Assembly: GCA_000004985.1 (NCBI GenBank)
Contig: GG738887.1
Length of the DNA: 64,000 nucleotides
Strand: one strand, 5' to 3'
Origin: Naegleria gruberi
Taxonomy: Eukaryota
Notes under the pieces: model-generated
Database searches by the model: none
Told to the model about the DNA's origin: nothing
Seen by the model: the letters and a program-made list of their open reading frames with translations, nothing else
Translations under genes and position numbers: made by a program
Part shown: positions 44,625 to 64,000 of the stretch, in pieces
Position numbering within the stretch: the stretch's first letter is position 1
Layout of the letters: every line of letters starts with the position of its first letter

Positions 44625-46898
44625 CTAGATATTCAAAATTTGTCTGATAGATTGCTTGTTAGTCGAGTAATAAACAATCTTGCCACTTTCTCTAAACTTG
44701 GAAACAACATTTGGCTCCTCGCTAAATTCGTTTTGATAAAGACTGAGAACTCTTAAATGAGACAAGTGCGAGAAACAGCTTTCAAATGAAGGAATTTCAC
44801 AAAGCTCATTATGACTCAGATCCAACATTTCTAAATTCCTCAACAAGGTAGAAAAGAGCGTGCAGTTTGCATTTGTAATCTTCTCAATCTTGTTATGTCC
44901 GAGTCTCAAATCGACAATCTTGTTCGGTATCAATTCACTATTCCTATCATCCACTGTAGGTAATTGTTTTAAATTATTAAATGAAAGATTTAAAATTCTC
45001 AATTGTGGTAATGTTAGCAATTCCAACGGTATAGTTTCCAAAAGATTGTGACTCAAGTCTAACTCAACCAATGATTCAACTTGATAATTGAACAGAGATG
45101 AAAGGCATGATATTTGATTCCATTGAAGTTCTAACATGAGCAATTTAGAAAGACGTTGTGAAAATTTCATCTCTGTACTCTTTTTGTAATTCTCAATTTC
45201 TTCTGGCTCAGTGAGAGATGGATCAATGAATAAAAACTTGGGTGGAAATTCCTTGAGCTTTAAATAGTTGAGACTAATCATGGCAGAGTGATGATTTTCA
45301 TCATAGTTAAAAATCTGCCTTTGTACATAAGATTCAAAGTTTGGTCCTTTAAAATCCTTGCCAATATCTTCGTAGAGTTGAATTTGTAAAAGAAATCCAG
45401 TATTTGGAGCAATACAACATCTCTTATCTCTAACGTAGACAAAAGCCTCTTCAGCACTCATTTTCATTCGATTCATGACATAGGCAATAATAATGGTTGC
45501 AGATCGAGACATTCCTGCAGAGCAATGCACAAGAACCTTGTTGGAAGGATCAGCATTGAGACATTCATCGATCCAATCTAAGGCCTCATCAAATCGTCCC
45601 ATAATATTGGTCTTTTCTTCATCTGTCTCTGATATTTGTTTGTAATTTTTGAATAGACGAGATCTTTCCTCCTCGTCTGGGAAGGGAGAAATAACATTCA
45701 CACACAAAATACTATTAATACCAATTGATTTCAACTCTTCAATATTTGTAGCAGCAGTAACGGATCCCAAATAGAGTCTATCTGCAATCCTTTGTGGCAC
45801 TCGTTGCATGTGACATAAAAATCTCATTGCATTATGTGAATTGTGAGAGCCCTTCTTGGTTAGCACTTTAGAGAAGGATAGTCTGGCTTTTGGTGAATTT
45901 TTCTTGATTGACATTTTGATTGGAGAGGAAAAGTCCTCGTTGTGGTGAGTTTGAGACTTTTCTCTTCCAGTAATATATTTCAATTCTATAGGAATAGCAT
46001 CAGCTAAATCTATGTAATTCTCCTGTACATTCAAAGTTAAAAGACTATGTTGAATAAATAGGTTGGAAAAGTATTTTGGAATCCTTTTGATATTATTATT
46101 GGAAAGATTCAAAACTTTGAGAGGACATAAAGAAGCAACCTTGAAAAACTCTTCAGAAATCTCCTCAATAGCATTCGAGCTCAAATTAATGGACGTTAAT
46201 TGTTTAAATTGTGAGAGAAATTCAATAGGAATCCTCTTGAGTCCACAATTTGTTAATTCCACCACTGTAATATTCTCTTTCAAATAATTTGCCAATTTCC
46301 TCTTCTCGTCAAACATAACTTCTACCAAATTGACTCTCAAATATTCGTCCATATCACTCACACCATCATGCAATAAATTATTAAATTCCAAACCTTCAAA
46401 CGGAGCCACAACCTGTTCATTCTCAATCAATTCATTTACATTATTTACAATTGAAACTCTATCAGAATTTTCATTAAACTTCAGGATTAAATTTTCCAAA
46501 GCCTCCGATCTAATAGTATTCTCCACAACACTCATCGAACACTTTCTAAAGAAGAGAATCTTTCCATGCTGTTCTCCACTCTCGACTGATGCAGCAGCGG
46601 TTGAAGAAGTTGATGAAGCAATCCTCTTGGAAATATCCGTAGTATTGTCATTTGTAGAATGAATAGCTTGTTCTATAGTAGAAAAGAATTTACTAAGAGT
46701 TTCACCTATTGAAGAAGTAGAAGGAGATGAAGAATTTGTTATTGTTGTATTACTGGATTTTCTTCTGGGAGAATTTTCAGAGTTTGAATTTGTTGTTGTT
46801 GTTGTTTTTGTTGTTGTTGGTGATGAGAACCATCTCCGACCACCGGAAAAGAACGCCAAGACCGGAAGAAGCGTGAGCCACCAGAGAGCGGCAAGCAT
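44625..46898 (-). CDS. Leucine-rich-repeat protein with a central dual-specificity phosphatase domain (MPL-like), 757 aa
   Basis: The DUSP catalytic loop is VHCSAGMSRSATIIIAYVM (HC..G..RS). LRR blocks sit on both sides (LTSINLSSNAIEEI, LKVLNLSNNNIKRIP, LVELDLSHNLLETIP, LRILNLSFNNLKQLP). An N-terminal hydrophobic segment (MLAALWWLTLLPVLAFF) is present. Confidence 0.75.
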   Translation of the reverse strand: MLAALWWLTLLPVLAFFSGGRRWFSSPTTTKTTTTTNSNSENSPRRKSSNTTITNSSSPSTSSIGETLSKFFSTIEQAIHSTNDNTTDISKRIASSTSSTAAASVESGEQHGKILFFRKCSMSVVENTIRSEALENLILKFNENSDRVSIVNNVNELIENEQVVAPFEGLEFNNLLHDGVSDMDEYLRVNLVEVMFDEKRKLANYLKENITVVELTNCGLKRIPIEFLSQFKQLTSINLSSNAIEEISEEFFKVASLCPLKVLNLSNNNIKRIPKYFSNLFIQHSLLTLNVQENYIDLADAIPIELKYITGREKSQTHHNEDFSSPIKMSIKKNSPKARLSFSKVLTKKGSHNSHNAMRFLCHMQRVPQRIADRLYLGSVTAATNIEELKSIGINSILCVNVISPFPDEEERSRLFKNYKQISETDEEKTNIMGRFDEALDWIDECLNADPSNKVLVHCSAGMSRSATIIIAYVMNRMKMSAEEAFVYVRDKRCCIAPNTGFLLQIQLYEDIGKDFKGPNFESYVQRQIFNYDENHHSAMISLNYLKLKEFPPKFLFIDPSLTEPEEIENYKKSTEMKFSQRLSKLLMLELQWNQISCLSSLFNYQVESLVELDLSHNLLETIPLELLTLPQLRILNLSFNNLKQLPTVDDRNSELIPNKIVDLRLGHNKIEKITNANCTLFSTLLRNLEMLDLSHNELCEIPSFESCFSHLSHLRVLSLYQNEFSEEPNVVSKFRESGKIVYYSTNKQSIRQILNI

Positions 46899-47103: not shown

Positions 47104-48783
47104 TTAGTGCATGAGCAGAATGGCTGAATATTCGTGTTCACACCTTTCAAGAAATAATCTTTCTGAATAAATAGTAAAGAATCCATCAGATATAGAGGCT
47201 GCTCTTTGAATCTCTGGATCTGTTCTCAATTTCATAGAGAGTATGTTGATATTATTTCCTGTCTTCTTGACAAACTCCATGGCAAGCTCTTTATCTATCT
47301 CACCATAGTAATTATTTAAACCACCCCTTATAGCTGCAATCAATACATCTCGATCAGATGGAAATAAGTTACGCAACATTGAATAGTCAGAGCCCTTACG
47401 AATTAGTCCCTCAATTGCTAGCTCTTTATCCAATTGACCTGGATACAAAGCACGTAGATCTGATAAAGACAAGCCACTTCTTACAGCCTCTAAAGCAAAA
47501 TTTCTATTGGATAGTAATAGTGCTGGTGGCTCAGCATCTGGTGGACTTTCCAAAAAGTTGGGCATGTCTTTTGGAACAAACAATGCAACAGAACCATTTT
47601 GCTTGACAGCTGCCATAATAATTTCACTGTCTCTCGTTAAACGTGGAGAAACAAACTGATAGCAACATCCGTTCTGTTTGACAAGTTCCAAAACCACCTC
47701 TCTATCATCTTGCAATATTTTCATCAAGTGTAAATGCAGTGGATTGTCTCTGACAGCTGTCAATGCCAAATTTTTATCATTTAACAGATCTGGATGAGCA
47801 TAAGCATACATTTTTGCCTTAACCAAAATATCTACATCTGTTTTCAATCTGTAAGATGCATAATGATATGCTTGATTGTCATTCTCCAAGGCCAACAATA
47901 CAATTTCCTTGTTATCTTTAATTTCTTTCGAAGCATAATTGAGAGAAGTTCCTTTTCTAGTAATTGCCCTTGTTACCACTCTCAAATCCCCCTTCAGTTC
48001 TTGGCTTGCAAACTCGAGTGCATCTGGATTCTGATTAATTGCCAAGTTGACAATTTTCTTATTATTTTTCAATTCAACAGATGCATATTGCAAACCTTTT
48101 CCATAAACCTTTACAATTTCTGTAAGTACATCAGGATTCGATCCATAATTCTTTAAAATTTGATCCAAATACCTTGTATCTGTCCATTCCTTCACACTAA
48201 ACTCTCCTCTATTAAACAAATCCAAAACAAATGCAATATCCTCCTCTCCATACTTATTGTGCATAATTCCACTCAATTTTCCCTTTTCATTTGCAATATC
48301 ATTCAAATACTTTTCAAATCCCTCAACACTTCTCAATTGTCCATAATCTTTCAAACTGGGATTATAAATCTTCCTCATAATTGCTCTCATCACCAAAGCA
48401 TCTCTCAAAACCTCTCGAGGTAATATCTGAATAATTGTCTCTATCGATAACTTGACCAAATTCCTCATATAATCAATTACACAATCTCTGTGCTTCATAA
48501 ACTCAATCGGAATAAAATCATTATTTGTTTTAAATTCCTTCTTACGATCCAATCGGAGATGAATTCGTTGAAACCACTTGACTCTTCCTTTCTGTTGATT
48601 TTCAAATTTTGATTTTAATTTTAAATATAAATGATGAAGATGATCATGATGATGATTATTAATATTGGAATGATGATCGGAGAGAATTAGAATGACAGCA
48701 TCACGATGATGATAAGAAGCAGGAGGAGCAGTTGCTTTTGTACCTTTTCTAATTGTTGTTTTTTTGCTTTTGTTTGTAAGCAT
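47104..48783 (-). CDS. Protein made of DUF4116-like helical repeats (559 aa)
   Basis: A repeated pattern ...(V/I)L.A(V/I)..N..AL.(Y/F)AS.(E/R)LK.D.E(I/V)V..A... is visible (IVNLAINQNPDALEFASQELKGDLRVVTRA, IVLLALENDNQAYHYASYRLKTDVDILVKA, LALTAVRDNPLHL, VVLELVKQNGCCYQFVSPRLTRDSEIIMAAVKQNGSVALF). Confidence 0.5.
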   Translation of the reverse strand: MLTNKSKKTTIRKGTKATAPPASYHHRDAVILILSDHHSNINNHHHDHLHHLYLKLKSKFENQQKGRVKWFQRIHLRLDRKKEFKTNNDFIPIEFMKHRDCVIDYMRNLVKLSIETIIQILPREVLRDALVMRAIMRKIYNPSLKDYGQLRSVEGFEKYLNDIANEKGKLSGIMHNKYGEEDIAFVLDLFNRGEFSVKEWTDTRYLDQILKNYGSNPDVLTEIVKVYGKGLQYASVELKNNKKIVNLAINQNPDALEFASQELKGDLRVVTRAITRKGTSLNYASKEIKDNKEIVLLALENDNQAYHYASYRLKTDVDILVKAKMYAYAHPDLLNDKNLALTAVRDNPLHLHLMKILQDDREVVLELVKQNGCCYQFVSPRLTRDSEIIMAAVKQNGSVALFVPKDMPNFLESPPDAEPPALLLSNRNFALEAVRSGLSLSDLRALYPGQLDKELAIEGLIRKGSDYSMLRNLFPSDRDVLIAAIRGGLNNYYGEIDKELAMEFVKKTGNNINILSMKLRTDPEIQRAASISDGFFTIYSERLFLERCEHEYSAILLMH

Positions 48784-51808: not shown

Positions 51809-52369
51809 ATGGACGAATCAACACCTCTCTATAATTTCGGAAATTCTGTGGAAAAAGATGAACGTTCGGAAGATGATGATATTGTCATTCAATTCGTTCA
51901 ATTAATTTCATGTTTATTACTTTCATGTTTTACATTATTTGATTTAGTTTTGGGGATTTGGGGAAGTGTAATTTTTGGAATCTATTCGAAAGGGTCCAAT
52001 CTGATAGATCCAGAGCCATGTAATATGACAACTGCCACTGCTTTAATAATGACATGCTCTGTGTGTTATTTCTCATTCTTTATTTTCAAGATTAGTTTAG
52101 TTTGTTGTCATTGTTTCGGATGTAGAAAGAAAAGGATTTATCTTGTACCAAGCATTTGTTTCTTCTACATTCCTTGTTTAATAATTAATGGAATTTCGTG
52201 TACGATCTTGGCATTCATTGGTGGAAATAGAAAATGTCAAGAAATTCATGTTCAGGAATTCGCATTTTCCATAACAAGCGTAATTCTAATGTCTCTAATT
52301 ATATGTATATGGACTTGTCAAAATTGTTTATTGGGTGGATGTAAATTAGTTGCCGCTAACGAGGATTAA
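51809..52369 (+). CDS. Cys-rich four-TM membrane protein (186 aa), family not recognised
   Basis: The start is aaaaaATG. Four hydrophobic helices are LISCLLLSCFTLFDLVLGIWGSVIFGIY, ATALIMTCSVCYFSFFIFKISLVCC, IYLVPSICFFYIPCLIINGISCTILAFIGG and FAFSITSVILMSLIICIWTC. Confidence 0.5.
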   Translation: MDESTPLYNFGNSVEKDERSEDDDIVIQFVQLISCLLLSCFTLFDLVLGIWGSVIFGIYSKGSNLIDPEPCNMTTATALIMTCSVCYFSFFIFKISLVCCHCFGCRKKRIYLVPSICFFYIPCLIINGISCTILAFIGGNRKCQEIHVQEFAFSITSVILMSLIICIWTCQNCLLGGCKLVAANED

Positions 52370-52875: not shown

Positions 52876-53853
52876 TTACTCGGCACCAATTAACAAATCA
52901 GAGAGCTTGTACTCAATGACAAACTTTTGATTACTCTTCAATGAATCAATCAAGGCCAAGACTGGATTACGGCTCTTCAAAGTTTCAGCATTAGCTTGAG
53001 ACACTTCACCAGTATTTTCCAAATCAGTAGCAGCTTGCTTCTTGGCATTAACCTTAATGAGATATCTGAAACCTAACTTGGTACAGAAAATAGAAGAGAA
53101 GAAGAAGAGAGACATTAAAATACCATAACCATGAACCATTGTACCAATTAAACAGACAAGATTGAGTGCCAAATTGAGAGCCATCATGATTGGAGACTTT
53201 AAGAGCATTGAAATAGTTTCCAAAACTACCAAAATCCAGAAAATAACATGAACAAAAACTGGGAATCTCCATCCATTAGTATCAGCAGCAACCCAAATGA
53301 CACCAATAATTTGTAAGAGAAGTGTCAAGGCCAACAAGTTACACAATGACCCAATCAATGCAGTTGGAGAACGAACACGAGTCTTGAGTTTGTTCAACAT
53401 TTGTCTAAAGGTCGATGTTGGACGCATTCTCATAGTCGAATCTTCTGTAGAAGCTTGAGCCATACCACCATTTCCATCAATAGTAGTTGTTGTGGTTGTA
53501 ATTGTAGTGGTATATGGGAGTTGTTGTTGAATTTGAATTGGTTCGGTAGTTATTGTTGTAGGATAAGGAGTTGCTTGTTGTTGACCAATGAATTGAACTG
53601 GAGGAATTGGTTGATTATTCATTCCGTATGGCATATATGAAGCACCTTGTAAAGTTGGATACATGTGTTGTTGGTGTGGGAGAACCGGTAATTGAACCAT
53701 TGGATTACTTGAAGGCAAAGAAGATGCTTGCAAGACTGGATAAGGAGTTGTCGTTGCTTGTATTGTAGGATTGGATGAAGGAATTGTTGTTGGTAAATTT
53801 GTATTCATCATTTGTTGTGCGTATGGATGTGGTGGAGGTGAAGTAAGAGTCAT
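52876..53853 (-). CDS. Paralog A of a 4-TM protein pair: Q/P/T-rich N-terminus, membrane core, conserved C-terminal ...KLSDLLIGAE (325 aa)
   Basis: It is collinear with the + strand gene at 54370..55197. Shared blocks are KLKTRVRSPTALIGSLCNLLALTLL / KLKSRVRSPYTLVSSLCNMLSLAML, HVIFWILVVLETISMLLKSPIMMALNL / HIVFWILFVVQPIFMILKSPLLMVVSL, and both end SDLLIGAE. Confidence 0.6.
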   Translation of the reverse strand: MTLTSPPPHPYAQQMMNTNLPTTIPSSNPTIQATTTPYPVLQASSLPSSNPMVQLPVLPHQQHMYPTLQGASYMPYGMNNQPIPPVQFIGQQQATPYPTTITTEPIQIQQQLPYTTTITTTTTTIDGNGGMAQASTEDSTMRMRPTSTFRQMLNKLKTRVRSPTALIGSLCNLLALTLLLQIIGVIWVAADTNGWRFPVFVHVIFWILVVLETISMLLKSPIMMALNLALNLVCLIGTMVHGYGILMSLFFFSSIFCTKLGFRYLIKVNAKKQAATDLENTGEVSQANAETLKSRNPVLALIDSLKSNQKFVIEYKLSDLLIGAE

Positions 53854-54369
53854 CTTTAGTTAGTATAAATCTTCAAGGAATTATATTTTCTTATTATTAT
53901 TATTATTTTGATTATTATTTGTACAAAAGTCGCGACGATATTAGATGTCGGTTGGTTTTATGATAATTTTTTTAGTGATTTTGTTTGATGTGAGATGAAC
54001 AAGAATTTGAATGGAAGCATCAATTTTCGAATTCCTTTCCAATTTGATTTTTGACTTCTTTTAAGGAGGTTGTTAACGTTGAGGAGTTGTTGAAACAAGC
54101 TGTTGATTATCAGCGATATTCGATATCGACTAGATTTTGAATCATGTATTCATCCTTAATATCTACTTCGATAATCGAAAATAATTCCTTTCTAATTCTC
54201 TCGCGATCTTGTTCAACTAGGCTTCTACTTCCAACAGACATCAAATTTTTAAACCTTAAAAAAAATCGCAAAATTCTGCCAAGCTCGTAAATTTGCAGCC
54301 AATTTCAAACTCTAACCGCCTGTACCATCATCACAATCATTTTCATTATTTAAATAATTCGCGATCACA

Positions 54370-55197
54370 ATGAATAATAATAATGCTACAAATAATAACC
54401 ATGTTCATCCGTACATGATGGCACAACAACAACAACAACAATTTACAAAATCACCTGATGCTCCTCCAATTCAATATCATTCCGGTCTTGCTCAACAACA
54501 ACAACAACCAGTTTTTACCACCTCAAGTCCATATCCAACCTCTACCACCACCACTACCTATACAACTACTATTGAATCAGTGCCACAACAATATCCTACA
54601 AACATGGATAATGTTGCTCAAGCATCTATGGAAGATTCTTCTTTAAAGCTTGTTGGAACTTCTATTGCAAAGCAAATGTGGACTAAATTGAAGAGTAGAG
54701 TACGTTCTCCATACACTCTTGTCTCTTCATTGTGTAACATGTTGTCATTGGCCATGCTTTTTGAATTTATCTTTATCATTGTTGCTTCCTGTCAATATTA
54801 TAACGCCACACCAGCTCATATGCACATTGTCTTTTGGATTTTGTTCGTGGTTCAACCAATTTTCATGATTTTGAAATCACCTTTATTGATGGTTGTTTCC
54901 TTGTTTATGAATTTGGCCATGTTTGTTATGAGTTGTGTTCAAACTGCTGCCTATGGCAAGAATACTGGTATTTCATATGGTGTTTTGGTTGTCATGTTCT
55001 TGTACTCGTGTTTCTTTTCAGTTATTTTGGCTATCAGTTATCTCAAGAAGGTCAACAAGTCAACAGAACAACAAGCAACTCAATCACCAAAAGCTGCTAT
55101 CATGGCTGACATTGTTACCATTACTCAAAATATTAAGCGTTATAGAGAAATGATCAAGGCTTGTAAAATTTCTGATCTCTTAATTGGTGCTGAATAA
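54370..55197 (+). CDS. Paralog B of the 4-TM protein pair (275 aa), divergently transcribed from paralog A
   Basis: See paralog A. It has a poly-N/Q N-terminus and a T-rich tract (TSTTTTTYTTTIES). A shared intergenic region of about 515 bp (53854..54369) lies between the two start codons. Confidence 0.6.
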   Translation: MNNNNATNNNHVHPYMMAQQQQQQFTKSPDAPPIQYHSGLAQQQQQPVFTTSSPYPTSTTTTTYTTTIESVPQQYPTNMDNVAQASMEDSSLKLVGTSIAKQMWTKLKSRVRSPYTLVSSLCNMLSLAMLFEFIFIIVASCQYYNATPAHMHIVFWILFVVQPIFMILKSPLLMVVSLFMNLAMFVMSCVQTAAYGKNTGISYGVLVVMFLYSCFFSVILAISYLKKVNKSTEQQATQSPKAAIMADIVTITQNIKRYREMIKACKISDLLIGAE

Positions 55198-55433: not shown

Positions 55434-56235
55434 TTAACAAGCTGTGCAATTCTTTCCTAATTGCTTTGCTGACAAGCTCAATAATAATGGTCTCACATAC
55501 ACGACGGAATTGGCAATAGCTGTTGGAATATATCCATTAGGAGCTGCTTGAGCTATGAAAGTAGCTCTCAAATCTCCATTGTTTAATTCGGTAAATTTCA
55601 GATAGGTGAAAATGTTGGTTCCTCTGACGTGGCCCTTTGCTGGCTTAATGTCGAGAGCTTCATCGATGGAAGTTGTCAATAGGATGGTTGTCTTTTTGGC
55701 ATCAGAAACTTCTGGTTTAACATCGAAATATCTTTCAACATAGAGAAAATCTCTTTCCGAAACCATCATGCCTTTTTTCCAATAAAATTTCCAATATTTT
55801 CCACACATGAATTATCAATAATTTTGATAAGAAATGAAATATTCCAATACAACCAATCGTTAGCAAACCATGCACAAACAATCAAAACCTACTTGGTGAA
55901 GTTACAACATAATGTCTGACACTCCAATTTCCCTCCTCAGTGCTAAACTTTCCTACTTCAGTAATTGATTTGGTATTCTCATCAAAAATTTGTCTAGTTT
56001 TCGTATCTGCAGTAGTCAACAATGGAACAATCTCATCAACAGTACATTGTGAAATAAGTGTCTCTCCACGAATGACACTTCCTTCATTGGCAGATGCTAC
56101 AGAAATTGTCACCTGATCGACGACCTTGTATGGTTTGAATAGATCAGTGCTCTTTTCATAATGTTGGGCAACTGAGAGAGCTTTGGAGTAGAGAGTGGAG
56201 GAAATGACCTTGTTGATGGATTCGATGGAGAACAT
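55434..56235 (-). CDS. START (StAR-related lipid-transfer / Bet v1-fold) domain protein, about 226 aa, 2 exons; complement(join(55434..55771,55893..56235))
   Basis: ATG at 56235 in an aaaaaaATG context (the track start at 56367 is further upstream in a GC-richer leader). A GTAGGT donor (+ strand acctac 55887-55892) and acceptor aaaaaag give a 121-nt phase-1 intron. The spliced protein reads ...EEGNWSVRHYVVTSPSMMVSERDFLYVERYFDVKPE...GTNIFTYLKFTELNNGDLRATFIAQAAPNGYIPTAIANSVVYVRP, which is START-like. Confidence 0.6.
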
Positions 56236-56652
56236 TTTTTTTAAAGTTTTGAATAGTTGATTTGGAGAATTTAATAGGGAAATTGAGAGAGGAGTCGGAT
56301 AGTCGGCCGGTGCAGTTTGCTCAGTCCTATCCGATCTCAAATTATTGATTAGGGATTCTCTTTGCATTTAAGTGTGCTGATTACAGCAACTGTTATTGTA
56401 AACTTGACTAAGTTAGTGATGAGAAAGTTGAAAACTGTAGATGCCTATCCATGATACTCCATCCTTTTCCTTATGAAAAAACCGTTCAATTGGACTATTA
56501 ATGATTAAATATATTTAATAATTTATATTCCAAATTCTTTCGTGAAGAAATTTCTTTTGAAAATACTGTAAAACTACCAAATTTATTTATTGGCGCCACT
56601 TTTTCCCGCCTCTCACTTACTATTATTTTAATATAAATAATAAAAAAAACGA

Positions 56653-61235: not shown

Positions 61236-61602
61236 ACCCATAACCGAATTTGAGGCATGTAGTGTAATTCTAACATCACGATCAGCTCATTACTCTATGA
61301 AGTTTAATCTTTGCATCAAATCTGCTAAATTAACTTTTCAAATTTTAATGAAGAGGTCAGCAAATGTTTTTAAAGTTCCCAAAATGTTTTCAATGTTCAT
61401 TTTCAAAATTTCTTATCTATTTTTAAATATAATGACGAAATTTTCATCATCATTACAAAAAGTATGATGTCAACAACTCCGAAATTCAATGATGAAGACA
61501 CACGGTTTTCATTCATATAAAACCCATTGAACGATATTCTTGAAAAAAACAAGAATTTGCAAACAAGCAATTCAACTAACAATTCTAATAACTCAAACAA
61601 AA

Positions 61603-62150
61603 TGGACTTTTTCAAAAAGATTGGTCAATTCTTCTCTGGATGGCTCAGAGGTTTATTCGAAAATAAGGAAGCCAAGATTCTATTCCTTGGTTTGGATGCA
61701 GCTGGTAAAACTTCAGCTCTATATAAGATTCAATTAGATGAAAATGTTAGCACTATTCCCACCATTGGTTTCAATGCTGAAGTGTTACAATATAAGAAGG
61801 TAACTTTCAGAGTGTTTGATATTGGTGGCCAGGATAAGATTAGAAAGTTATGGAGACACTATTATCAATCGACAAATGCTATCATTTTCATTGTCGATTC
61901 TAATGATACTGAGAGATTTAAAGAAGCTGCCGAAACCTTACGGGAAGTTATGCAGGATGATTTATTGAAAGATGCCAAGTTATTGGTGTGGGCTAATAAG
62001 CAAGATTTGCCAAGAGCTGCCAATGTTAAAGATATGGTCAATACTTTGAAATTACACGAGATTAAGCAAGAATGGTACATCCAACCATGTAGTGCCCTGT
62101 CTGGCAATGGATTATTCGAAGGTTTGGATTGGTTATCCAGTAAATTGTAA
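61603..62150 (+). CDS. Arf-family small GTPase (Arf-like/ARL), 182 aa
   Basis: [14 protein letters not shown] is an amphipathic N-helix. Motifs [32 protein letters not shown] and NKQDL are present. It is close to my recall of Arf1 ([16 protein letters not shown]...WDVGGQDKIRPLWRHYF). ATG at 61603 (caaaATGG); the track start at 61527 is upstream of the conserved N-terminus. Confidence 0.85.
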
Positions 62151-62364
62151 ATAAACACTTTGATATCTCATATTTCAAACTTGTCAAATAGGATTTCATC
62201 ATATTAGCCTCCAACCAATCTAAACACCATGACTAATTTAGAATTACTGTTAATTTCTAATTCTTGCAAAGTTTTTTCATCATCTTCCATTGACATCACT
62301 TTCGAATTGTGAATTATTCTAAATTCATTTCCAATGTTCCACTCCTCAGCCACCCTCCAACGTA

Positions 62365-64000
62365 NNNNNNNNNNNNNNNNNNNNNNNNNNNNNNNNNNNN
62401 NNNNNNNNNNNNNNNNNNNNNNNNNNNNNNNNNNNNNNNNNNNNNNNNNNNNNNNNNNNNNNNNNNNNNNNNNNNNNNNNNNNNNNNNNNNNNNNNNNNN
62501 NNNNNNNNNNNNNNNNNNNNNNNNNNNNNNNNNNNNNNNNNNNNNNNNNNNNNNNNNNNNNNNNNNNNNNNNNNNNNNNNNNNNNNNNNNNNNNNNNNNN
62601 NNNNNNNNNNNNNNNNNNNNNNNNNNNNNNNNNNNNNNNNNNNNNNNNNNNNNNNNNNNNNNNNNNNNNNNNNNNNNNNNNNNNNNNNNNNNNNNNNNNN
62701 NNNNNNNNNNNNNNNNNNNNNNNNNNNNNNNNNNNNNNNNNNNNNNNNNNNNNNNNNNNNNNNNNNNNNNNNNNNNNNNNNNNNNNNNNNNNNNNNNNNN
62801 NNNNNNNNNNNNNNNNNNNNNNNNNNNNNNNNNNNNNNNNNNNNNNNNNNNNNNNNNNNNNNNNNNNNNNNNNNNNNNNNNNNNNNNNNNNNNNNNNNNN
62901 NNNNNNNNNNNNNNNNNNNNNNNNNNNNNNNNNNNNNNNNNNNNNNNNNNNNNNNNNNNNNNNNNNNNNNNNNNNNNNNNNNNNNNNNNNNNNNNNNNNN
63001 NNNNNNNNNNNNNNNNNNNNNNNNNNNNNNNNNNNNNNNNNNNNNNNNNNNNNNNNNNNNNNNNNNNNNNNNNNNNNNNNNNNNNNNNNNNNNNNNNNNN
63101 NNNNNNNNNNNNNNNNNNNNNNNNNNNNNNNNNNNNNNNNNNNNNNNNNNNNNNNNNNNNNNNNNNNNNNNNNNNNNNNNNNNNNNNNNNNNNNNNNNNN
63201 NNNNNNNNNNNNNNNNNNNNNNNNNNNNNNNNNNNNNNNNNNNNNNNNNNNNNNNNNNNNNNNNNNNNNNNNNNNNNNNNNNNNNNNNNNNNNNNNNNNN
63301 NNNNNNNNNNNNNNNNNNNNNNNNNNNNNNNNNNNNNNNNNNNNNNNNNNNNNNNNNNNNNNNNNNNNNNNNNNNNNNNNNNNNNNNNNNNNNNNNNNNN
63401 NNNNNNNNNNNNNNNNNNNNNNNNNNNNNNNNNNNNNNNNNNNNNNNNNNNNNNNNNNNNNNNNNNNNNNNNNNNNNNNNNNNNNNNNNNNNNNNNNNNN
63501 NNNNNNNNNNNNNNNNNNNNNNNNNNNNNNNNNNNNNNNNNNNNNNNNNNNNNNNNNNNNNNNNNNNNNNNNNNNNNNNNNNNNNNNNNNNNNNNNNNNN
63601 NNNNNNNNNNNNNNNNNNNNNNNNNNNNNNNNNNNNNNNNNNNNNNNNNNNNNNNNNNNNNNNNNNNNNNNNNNNNNNNNNNNNNNNNNNNNNNNNNNNN
63701 NNNNNNNNNNNNNNNNNNNNNNNNNNNNNNNNNNNNNNNNNNNNNNNNNNNNNNNNNNNNNNNNNNNNNNNNNNNNNNNNNNNNNNNNNNNNNNNNNNNN
63801 NNNNNNNNNNNNNNNNNNNNNNNNNNNNNNNNNNNNNNNNNNNNNNNNNNNNNNNNNNNNNNNNNNNNNNNNNNNNNNNNNNNNNNNNNNNNNNNNNNNN
63901 NNNNNNNNNNNNNNNNNNNNNNNNNNNNNNNNNNNNNNNNNNNNNNNNNNNNNNNNNNNNNNNNNNNNNNNNNNNNNNNNNNNNNNNNNNNNNNNNNNNN
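62365..64000. other. Assembly gap / unsequenced to the end of the window (1636 N)
   Basis: Run of n characters from 62365 to the window end. Confidence 1.

Follow-up and report, generated by a model that had tools for sequence, protein, structure and literature searches.

Two head-to-head genes of Naegleria gruberi encode members of an orphan four-helix membrane protein family found, among the proteins searched, only in Naegleriidae

Do two small membrane-protein genes that diverge from a common spacer in Naegleria gruberi form a conserved two-gene module, and can their products be assigned to a known family? We addressed these questions for genes A and B, which lie in a 64,000-nucleotide stretch of contig GG738887.1 (assembly GCA_000004985.1), hereafter the window. 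A first-pass annotation of this DNA had described A and B as paralogues with four transmembrane (TM) helices and had proposed that they act as co-regulated partners, possibly in a heteromeric membrane complex. Our analysis indicates that they belong to an undescribed family that is not assignable to any known one and that, by sequence comparison, is an orphan restricted to Naegleriidae among the proteins searched; the genes themselves already had annotations as hypothetical proteins. Both copies are seen only in N. gruberi, and the head-to-head arrangement is not a conserved module.

The pair and its spacer are arranged as follows.

52876..53853, minus strand: gene A, NAEGRDRAFT_80792 (XP_002674017, D2VPV8), an intact ATG-to-stop open reading frame (ORF) of 325 amino acids (aa); the A-type, orthologue-bearing copy.
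54370..55197, plus strand: gene B, NAEGRDRAFT_80793 (XP_002673938, D2VPV9), an intact ATG-to-stop ORF of 275 aa; the diverged paralogue.
53854..54369, no strand: the divergent intergenic spacer between A and B, 516 bp and 30% GC, which presumably holds both promoters.

The encoded proteins are 100% identical to those of NAEGRDRAFT_80792 and NAEGRDRAFT_80793, both annotated as hypothetical, and because the annotated gene models coincide with the ORFs, A and B are both single-exon genes. The host is thus N. gruberi, a heterolobosean of the family Naegleriidae, and not the dictyostelid assumed earlier for a TBLASTN check. The head-to-head layout across a spacer of about 515 bp had been described correctly, with a measured length of 516 bp and both ORFs intact. 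Other divergent ORFs in the window face each other across 285-314 bp, so the A/B spacer, though longer, is not unusual. A bidirectional promoter shared by A and B is suggested only by this geometry. Rfam and tRNA scans of the A/B region, spacer included, gave no match, and comparison of the spacer with the regions upstream of the orthologues revealed no convincing conserved promoter word, with the sole exception of a single AAATTTGCAGC at 54289. This site, found post hoc, occupies 54289-54299 on the plus strand, 81 bp 5' of the B start codon, and has no other exact match in the window; it resembles AAATTTACAGC, which is sited 5' of the orthologues in N. lovaniensis (by 75 bp) and N. fowleri (by 70 bp). 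A bacterial promoter and terminator scan of the region was discounted because the host is a eukaryote.

The similarity between A and B is not confined to low-complexity sequence. Pairwise BLASTP aligned them over 208 aa (36% identity, 57% positives, E 3e-38). The alignment starts at AQAS(T/M)EDS and ends with the last eight residues; it takes in KLK(T/S)RVRSP, the juxtamembrane helix, the four hydrophobic segments and the tail, and the proposed paralogy is thereby upheld. The motifs quoted for the two proteins, namely KLK(T/S)RVRSP, H(V/I)(I/V)FWIL, LKSP and an identical C-terminal SDLLIGAE, were all found, and Kyte-Doolittle hydropathy, with four hydrophobic segments in each protein, agrees with AlphaFold2 secondary structure on four TM helices. 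The conserved core had been put at 170 aa; its actual extent is about 197-208 aa. The domain plan of A, and the matching tail of B, are given below.

53392..53853, minus strand: A residues 1-154, a P/Q/T/Y-rich N-terminal region, predicted to be cytosolic (alignments, motif scan, shuffles).
53059..53391, minus strand: A residues 155-265, the KLKxRxxSP juxtamembrane segment and four TM helices (hydropathy, AlphaFold2 model, invariant columns).
52879..52902, minus strand: A residues 318-325, the C-terminal tail SDLLIGAE, identical to the tail of B.
55171..55194, plus strand: B residues 268-275, the C-terminal tail SDLLIGAE, identical to the tail of A and part of an inverted repeat.

In the N-terminal region of A, the conserved islands are PPHPY (7-11), YPVL (38-41), YPTL (65-68), PPVQF (84-88) and a Thr run, and its TM helices are predicted at about 163-191, 199-218, 221-241 and 244-265; TM2 and TM3 are joined by an invariant KSP turn. 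Compared with A, B is shorter at the N-terminus, lacks YPxL, carries an insertion of 11 residues in its TM3-TM4 loop and is reduced in its C-terminal region; of the 55 positions invariant among the other five family members, it retains 41. The DNA that encodes the two tails forms inverted-repeat arms of 29 nt with 86% complementarity.

To which proteins are A and B related? Word-indexed searches of 5.8e9 clusters recovered one orthologue of A from each of N. lovaniensis (C9374_009493, 49% identity) and N. fowleri (FDP41_012681, 50%). A profile of the core, run against 1.84e9 cluster representatives at E<=1e-3, reached only A, B, an environmental fragment and Willaertia magna ABK040_015670, the last with E 1.7e-29; the full-length form of the environmental member is 301 aa. 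A family-pattern scan of JGI metagenome contigs added nothing. We therefore define the family by six members: A, B, the N. lovaniensis, N. fowleri and W. magna proteins, and the environmental Naegleria-like relative. A and B are the only two members in N. gruberi, and the protein searches returned no B-type orthologue in any other species. Literature and supplement searches on the gene identifiers found nothing published on either gene. Orphan membrane proteins restricted to one lineage are a common feature of protist genomes.

All six members share a P/Q/T/Y-rich N-terminus, a basic KLKxRxxSP segment, a four-TM bundle with very short loops and a helical C-terminal region of ~60 aa. On the N-terminal side, a PP(V/I)x(F/Y) island and a Thr-rich run are invariant. 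In and around the membrane core, the same holds for KLKxRxxSP directly before TM1, SLxN within TM1, P...H..FWI at the start of TM2, M.LKSP as a tight TM2-TM3 turn and RY..K(V/I)N after TM4. The tail follows the consensus DL(L/F)(I/V)GA, then E or D in five of the six, the environmental copy ending after GA. A and B thus both carry KLKxRxxSP, four TM helices with HxxFWI and the KSP turn, and the tail DL(L/F)(I/V)GA.

The loops between successive TM helices measure 7-10, 2 and 2-13 residues. The 30 residues that precede TM1 contain 7 Lys or Arg and the 30 that follow TM4 contain 5, against 1, 1 and 0 in the loops, and by the positive-inside rule such basic flanks around near-uncharged loops would place both termini in the cytosol. 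The predicted topology is N-in/C-in, with almost nothing exposed on the opposite side of the membrane. An AlphaFold2 model built from the six sequences, usable for the TM core only, gives a four-helix bundle with a predicted local distance difference test (pLDDT) score of 74-88 in that core, a predicted template-modelling score (pTM) of 0.52 and disordered flanks; an earlier model from four sequences (pLDDT 46) was unusable as a model. An internal 2+2 duplication of the TM helices was considered and rejected (hhalign probability 0.4%).

Can this core be assigned to a known family? The family had not been recognised in the first-pass annotation, and our searches bear this out: a Pfam scan of the six members at E<=10 showed no recurrent family, a profile search of all PDB sequences returned nothing below E 0.25, and Foldseek against the PDB gave no match at E<1. 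The fold matches that were seen are generic four-helix bundles, with soluble Rop, copper storage proteins, talin and designed proteins scoring equally. As modelled, the fold is a generic up-down four-helix bundle and assigns no family. Tetraspanins are recognised by a large second extracellular loop with CCG, and claudin-type proteins by a long beta-sheet first extracellular loop. The loops of 2-13 residues leave no space for the hallmark loops of tetraspanins, claudins or reticulons, which are accordingly absent. MARVEL (PF01284) gave no profile match; for tetraspanin (PF00335), the TM3-TM4 loop is 2-13 residues, with no CCG and no Pfam match; and the claudin/PMP22/TARP/LHFPL group, defined by a long first extracellular loop with W...C...C, matched neither in that loop nor by profile. 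A MARVEL or tetraspanin-like domain, which had been named as an explanation that would undo the proposal, therefore does not account for A and B, and membership in MARVEL, tetraspanin, claudin or reticulon is not supported by the sequences.

Two readings of the membrane core itself deserve weighing in this light. The proteins could be reticulon-like membrane shapers, with paired hydrophobic hairpins wedged into the cytosolic leaflet of the endoplasmic reticulum or other tubular membranes. B has a weak Pfam Reticulon match (PF02453, E 0.016, 15.5 bits), only a KSP turn joins TM2 and TM3, and the overall plan, with four hydrophobic segments between a variable N-terminus and a short C-terminal region, looks superficially alike. 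However, 15.5 bits falls well short of the gathering score of 31.8, the match occurs in one of the six members with none in the other five at E<=10, and the family profile search reached no reticulon. Moreover, the long hydrophilic loop between the hairpins (about 60 aa in reticulons) is missing from a family whose loops are all 2-13 residues, and AlphaFold2 gives four full-length helices packed as a bundle, so that we regard membrane shaping of this kind as very unlikely. A small channel, transporter or accessory subunit, with TARP/claudin-like proteins, MS4A, LCI1 or TTYH helices as models and the tails in a regulatory role, is also unlikely, if less so. The invariant polar residues within the membrane would suit it, namely the N in TM1 and the H at the start of TM2, but soluble four-helix bundles fit the core equally well, which makes the fold match generic; Foldseek gave nothing at E<1, no Pfam match links the family to them, and it is without the extracellular loops that define claudin/TARP and tetraspanin proteins.

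Is the divergent pair itself a shared feature of the family? The loci of the relatives were compared over the extents given here.

N. lovaniensis locus (L001), +-10 kb examined: one copy, with a divergent ankyrin-repeat gene and a downstream EF-hand gene as neighbours.
N. fowleri-like Logan contig (L002), 8.6 kb examined: one copy, with ankyrin-repeat and EF-hand neighbours as in N. lovaniensis.
Willaertia magna locus (L003), +-10 kb examined: one copy, with a peptidase M17 gene and an unknown gene as neighbours.
Environmental contigs (L004, L005), 3.1 and 3.4 kb examined: one copy, with a leucine-rich repeat (LRR) gene as divergent neighbour.

Within these extents, no paralogous neighbour stands beside the single copy in N. 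lovaniensis, N. fowleri, W. magna or the environmental loci, and beyond the family gene itself, the window and the N. lovaniensis locus showed no synteny. The EF-hand gene lies directly 3' of the family member in N. lovaniensis (L001 11136-12506) and in N. fowleri (L002 3472-4728), with faint EH-domain matches, and has no counterpart beside the N. gruberi pair.

The age of the duplication was approached through a neighbour-joining tree of 172 ungapped core columns, rooted on Willaertia, with 500 bootstraps. In 426 of 500 bootstraps, B branched outside a group formed by A, the N. lovaniensis and N. fowleri proteins and the environmental member, and A and B were never sisters. Third-codon-position identity is 0.43 between A and B, as low as the 0.45-0.47 between A and its orthologues, and together with the basal position of B this indicates that the duplication is old. 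Second-position identity between A and B, at 0.65, is far above the third-position value of 0.43, the pattern expected under purifying selection on both copies. We favour an old inverted local duplication with saturated silent sites and no recent gene conversion, as judged from these sequence comparisons. Two histories could account for the position of B: its loss from the other lineages, or rapid evolution of an N. gruberi duplicate that is pulled towards the root. The silent-site identities speak for an old origin, which makes the second history the less likely one.

These results bear on two opposite views of the pair. An obligatory A/B heteromeric membrane complex, co-regulated from a shared bidirectional promoter, would fit two genes that lie head to head 516 bp apart, both with ORFs intact despite saturated silent sites, and a B that keeps 41 of the 55 family-invariant positions and an identical tail. 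However, the N. lovaniensis, N. fowleri, W. magna and environmental copies are single within the extents compared, so the ancestral protein functions without a paralogous partner and the basic function of the family does not need one; in addition, no common promoter element was detected in the spacer comparison, and the spacer exceeds the 285-314 bp that separate other divergently oriented ORFs in the window. Co-regulated heteromeric partnership is accordingly not supported as a property of the family, whose relatives show a single copy with unrelated neighbours, and for N. gruberi itself we consider an obligatory complex improbable. At the other extreme, B could be a decaying or functionless duplicate and the pair without joint biological meaning: B is the longest branch, has lost YPxL, has a shortened N-terminus and indels, and has no orthologue found in other species. 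Yet its 275-codon ORF is intact despite saturated silent sites, it keeps 41 of 55 invariant positions and the exact tail, and the second- and third-position identities (0.65 and 0.43) are as under purifying selection, which makes decay extremely unlikely. Instead, the loss of YPxL with core and tail kept suggests, at the sequence level, subfunctionalisation of B rather than an obligatory A/B complex.

What, then, might these proteins do? The reading to which we give most weight, with a probability of roughly 0.4, is that they are tetraspan proteins of endomembranes or the plasma membrane that act in sorting or in recruiting machinery through short linear motifs, with B subfunctionalised. As the loops are short and little is exposed on the far side, action most plausibly runs through the cytosolic ends. 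Two YPxL copies each are present in A (YPVL, YPTL), N. lovaniensis (YPSL twice) and N. fowleri (YPTL twice), and one in the environmental copy (YPSL), at aligned positions across the A-type copies (YPxLQA, YPxLQG). Among 34 long ORFs in the window, A alone has YPxL twice; the base rate of the motif is 0.26 per 1000 aa. YPx(n)L is a ligand of the ALIX/Bro1 V domain, and YPxL is compatible with the YxxPhi adaptor signal as well. For Naegleria, ESCRT I-III and an ALIX homologue have been reported, and sorting of a membrane protein through YPX3L and ALIX is established for PAR1 (PMC9949670). What marks ALIX cargo, a YPx(n)L in an accessible cytosolic region, is seen in the A-type copies, with the cytosolic placement predicted from the positive-inside rule. 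The N-terminal YPxL pair of A-type members would accordingly be read as a possible contact for an ALIX/Bro1-type protein or a YxxPhi adaptor within the predicted cytosolic region, and the conserved extreme C-terminal tail may be a second motif that contacts cytosolic machinery. B, which keeps membrane core and tail and has lost YPxL, would then offer the same membrane module with different sorting.

Several observations weigh against this sorting and recruitment reading. YPxL is absent from B, and W. magna has a non-canonical YPQQL, so the motif cannot be the core function of the family. Composition shuffles put P for YPxL at about 1e-3 to 1e-4, and these values are optimistic because the motif was picked after seeing the alignment; with six sequences only, the conservation statistics are weak. 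The tail fits none of the motifs compared with it ([DE]xxxL[LI], DxxLL, clathrin box, PPxY, NPF), the DxxLL and clathrin-box patterns having been compared by eye with the aligned tails, and scans of tail and N-terminus for [DE]xxxL[LI], PPxY, LPxY and NPF found none conserved across members. The invariant N of TM1 and H of TM2 equally fit a transport or channel-accessory role, and literature searches on the gene identifiers found no experimental or expression evidence. A more specific form would make the proteins a Naegleriidae-specific tetraspan adaptor that engages ALIX/ESCRT-III through YPxL and a second partner through the tail, at the plasma membrane, endosome or contractile vacuole, in ubiquitin-independent sorting or vesicle shedding, with B as a YPxL-less modulator or antagonist of A; in this full form we think it quite unlikely to be right.

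If the motif-based sorting reading is true, the family would represent a lineage-specific means of coupling ESCRT or adaptor machinery to a membrane module. N. fowleri, the brain-eating amoeba, belongs to this lineage; it has a single orthologue, FDP41_012681, and no counterpart was detected outside Naegleriidae. At present, the value of this work is mainly descriptive, in that it defines a six-member orphan family, sets right the source organism and recasts the head-to-head arrangement as the remnant of an old duplication, seen in one species only, and not as a conserved module of two genes.

The surroundings of the A/B pair are ordinary eukaryotic genes.

44625-46898, minus strand: LRR and dual-specificity phosphatase protein, 757 aa (Pfam).
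47104-48783, minus strand: DUF4116-repeat protein, 559 aa (Pfam, 192 bits).
51809-52369, plus strand: Cys-rich ORF, 186 aa, with several hydrophobic segments and no Pfam match, tail-to-tail with gene A.
55434-55808 and 55882-56367, minus strand: two consecutive ORFs, the downstream one with a START-domain match of 20.2 bits against 22, just below threshold.
61527-62150, plus strand: Arf-family small GTPase ORF (Pfam Arf, 218 bits), near the end of the readable sequence.

The 186-aa ORF at 51809-52369 is a second small orphan membrane protein, unrelated to A and B by TBLASTN. The ORFs at 55434-55808 and 55882-56367 are probably one lipid-transfer-domain gene split by a short intron; no splice sites were identified between them. 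A 951-aa ORF near the pair has no Pfam match, and the last 1686 positions of the window (about 62315-64000) are N, either padding or the end of a scaffold.

How does this family compare with known systems? LAPTM4/5, NDFIP1/2 and SCAMPs are small proteins that cross the membrane several times, have short luminal loops and use short linear motifs in P/Y-rich cytosolic tails to recruit trafficking or ubiquitin machinery. The Naegleriidae proteins are likewise small and multi-TM, with short loops and P/Y-rich, motif-bearing ends that are predicted to be cytosolic, but they have no sequence or profile relationship to these groups. Furthermore, the PPxY/LPxY motifs of NDFIP and LAPTM occur in none of the six members, and NPF only in the C-terminal regions of the N. 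lovaniensis and N. fowleri members; the motifs of the Naegleriidae family are instead YPxL, PP(V/I)x(F/Y), KLKxRxxSP and the tail DL(L/F)(I/V)GA. Reticulon proteins (PF02453) resemble the family in their variable N-terminus, four hydrophobic segments and short C-terminal region, together with the weak match of B, and differ in that this match is below threshold and confined to B, whereas the family is without the long inter-hairpin loop and is modelled as a four-helix bundle. Cargo sorted by ALIX through YPx(n)L is exemplified by the YPX3L of PAR1, the fungal PacC/Rim pathway and retroviral late domains. The two conserved YPxL in the predicted cytosolic, disordered region of A-type members resemble these motifs in sequence, while B has no such motif, W. 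magna has YPQQL and the same tetrapeptide also fits YxxPhi.

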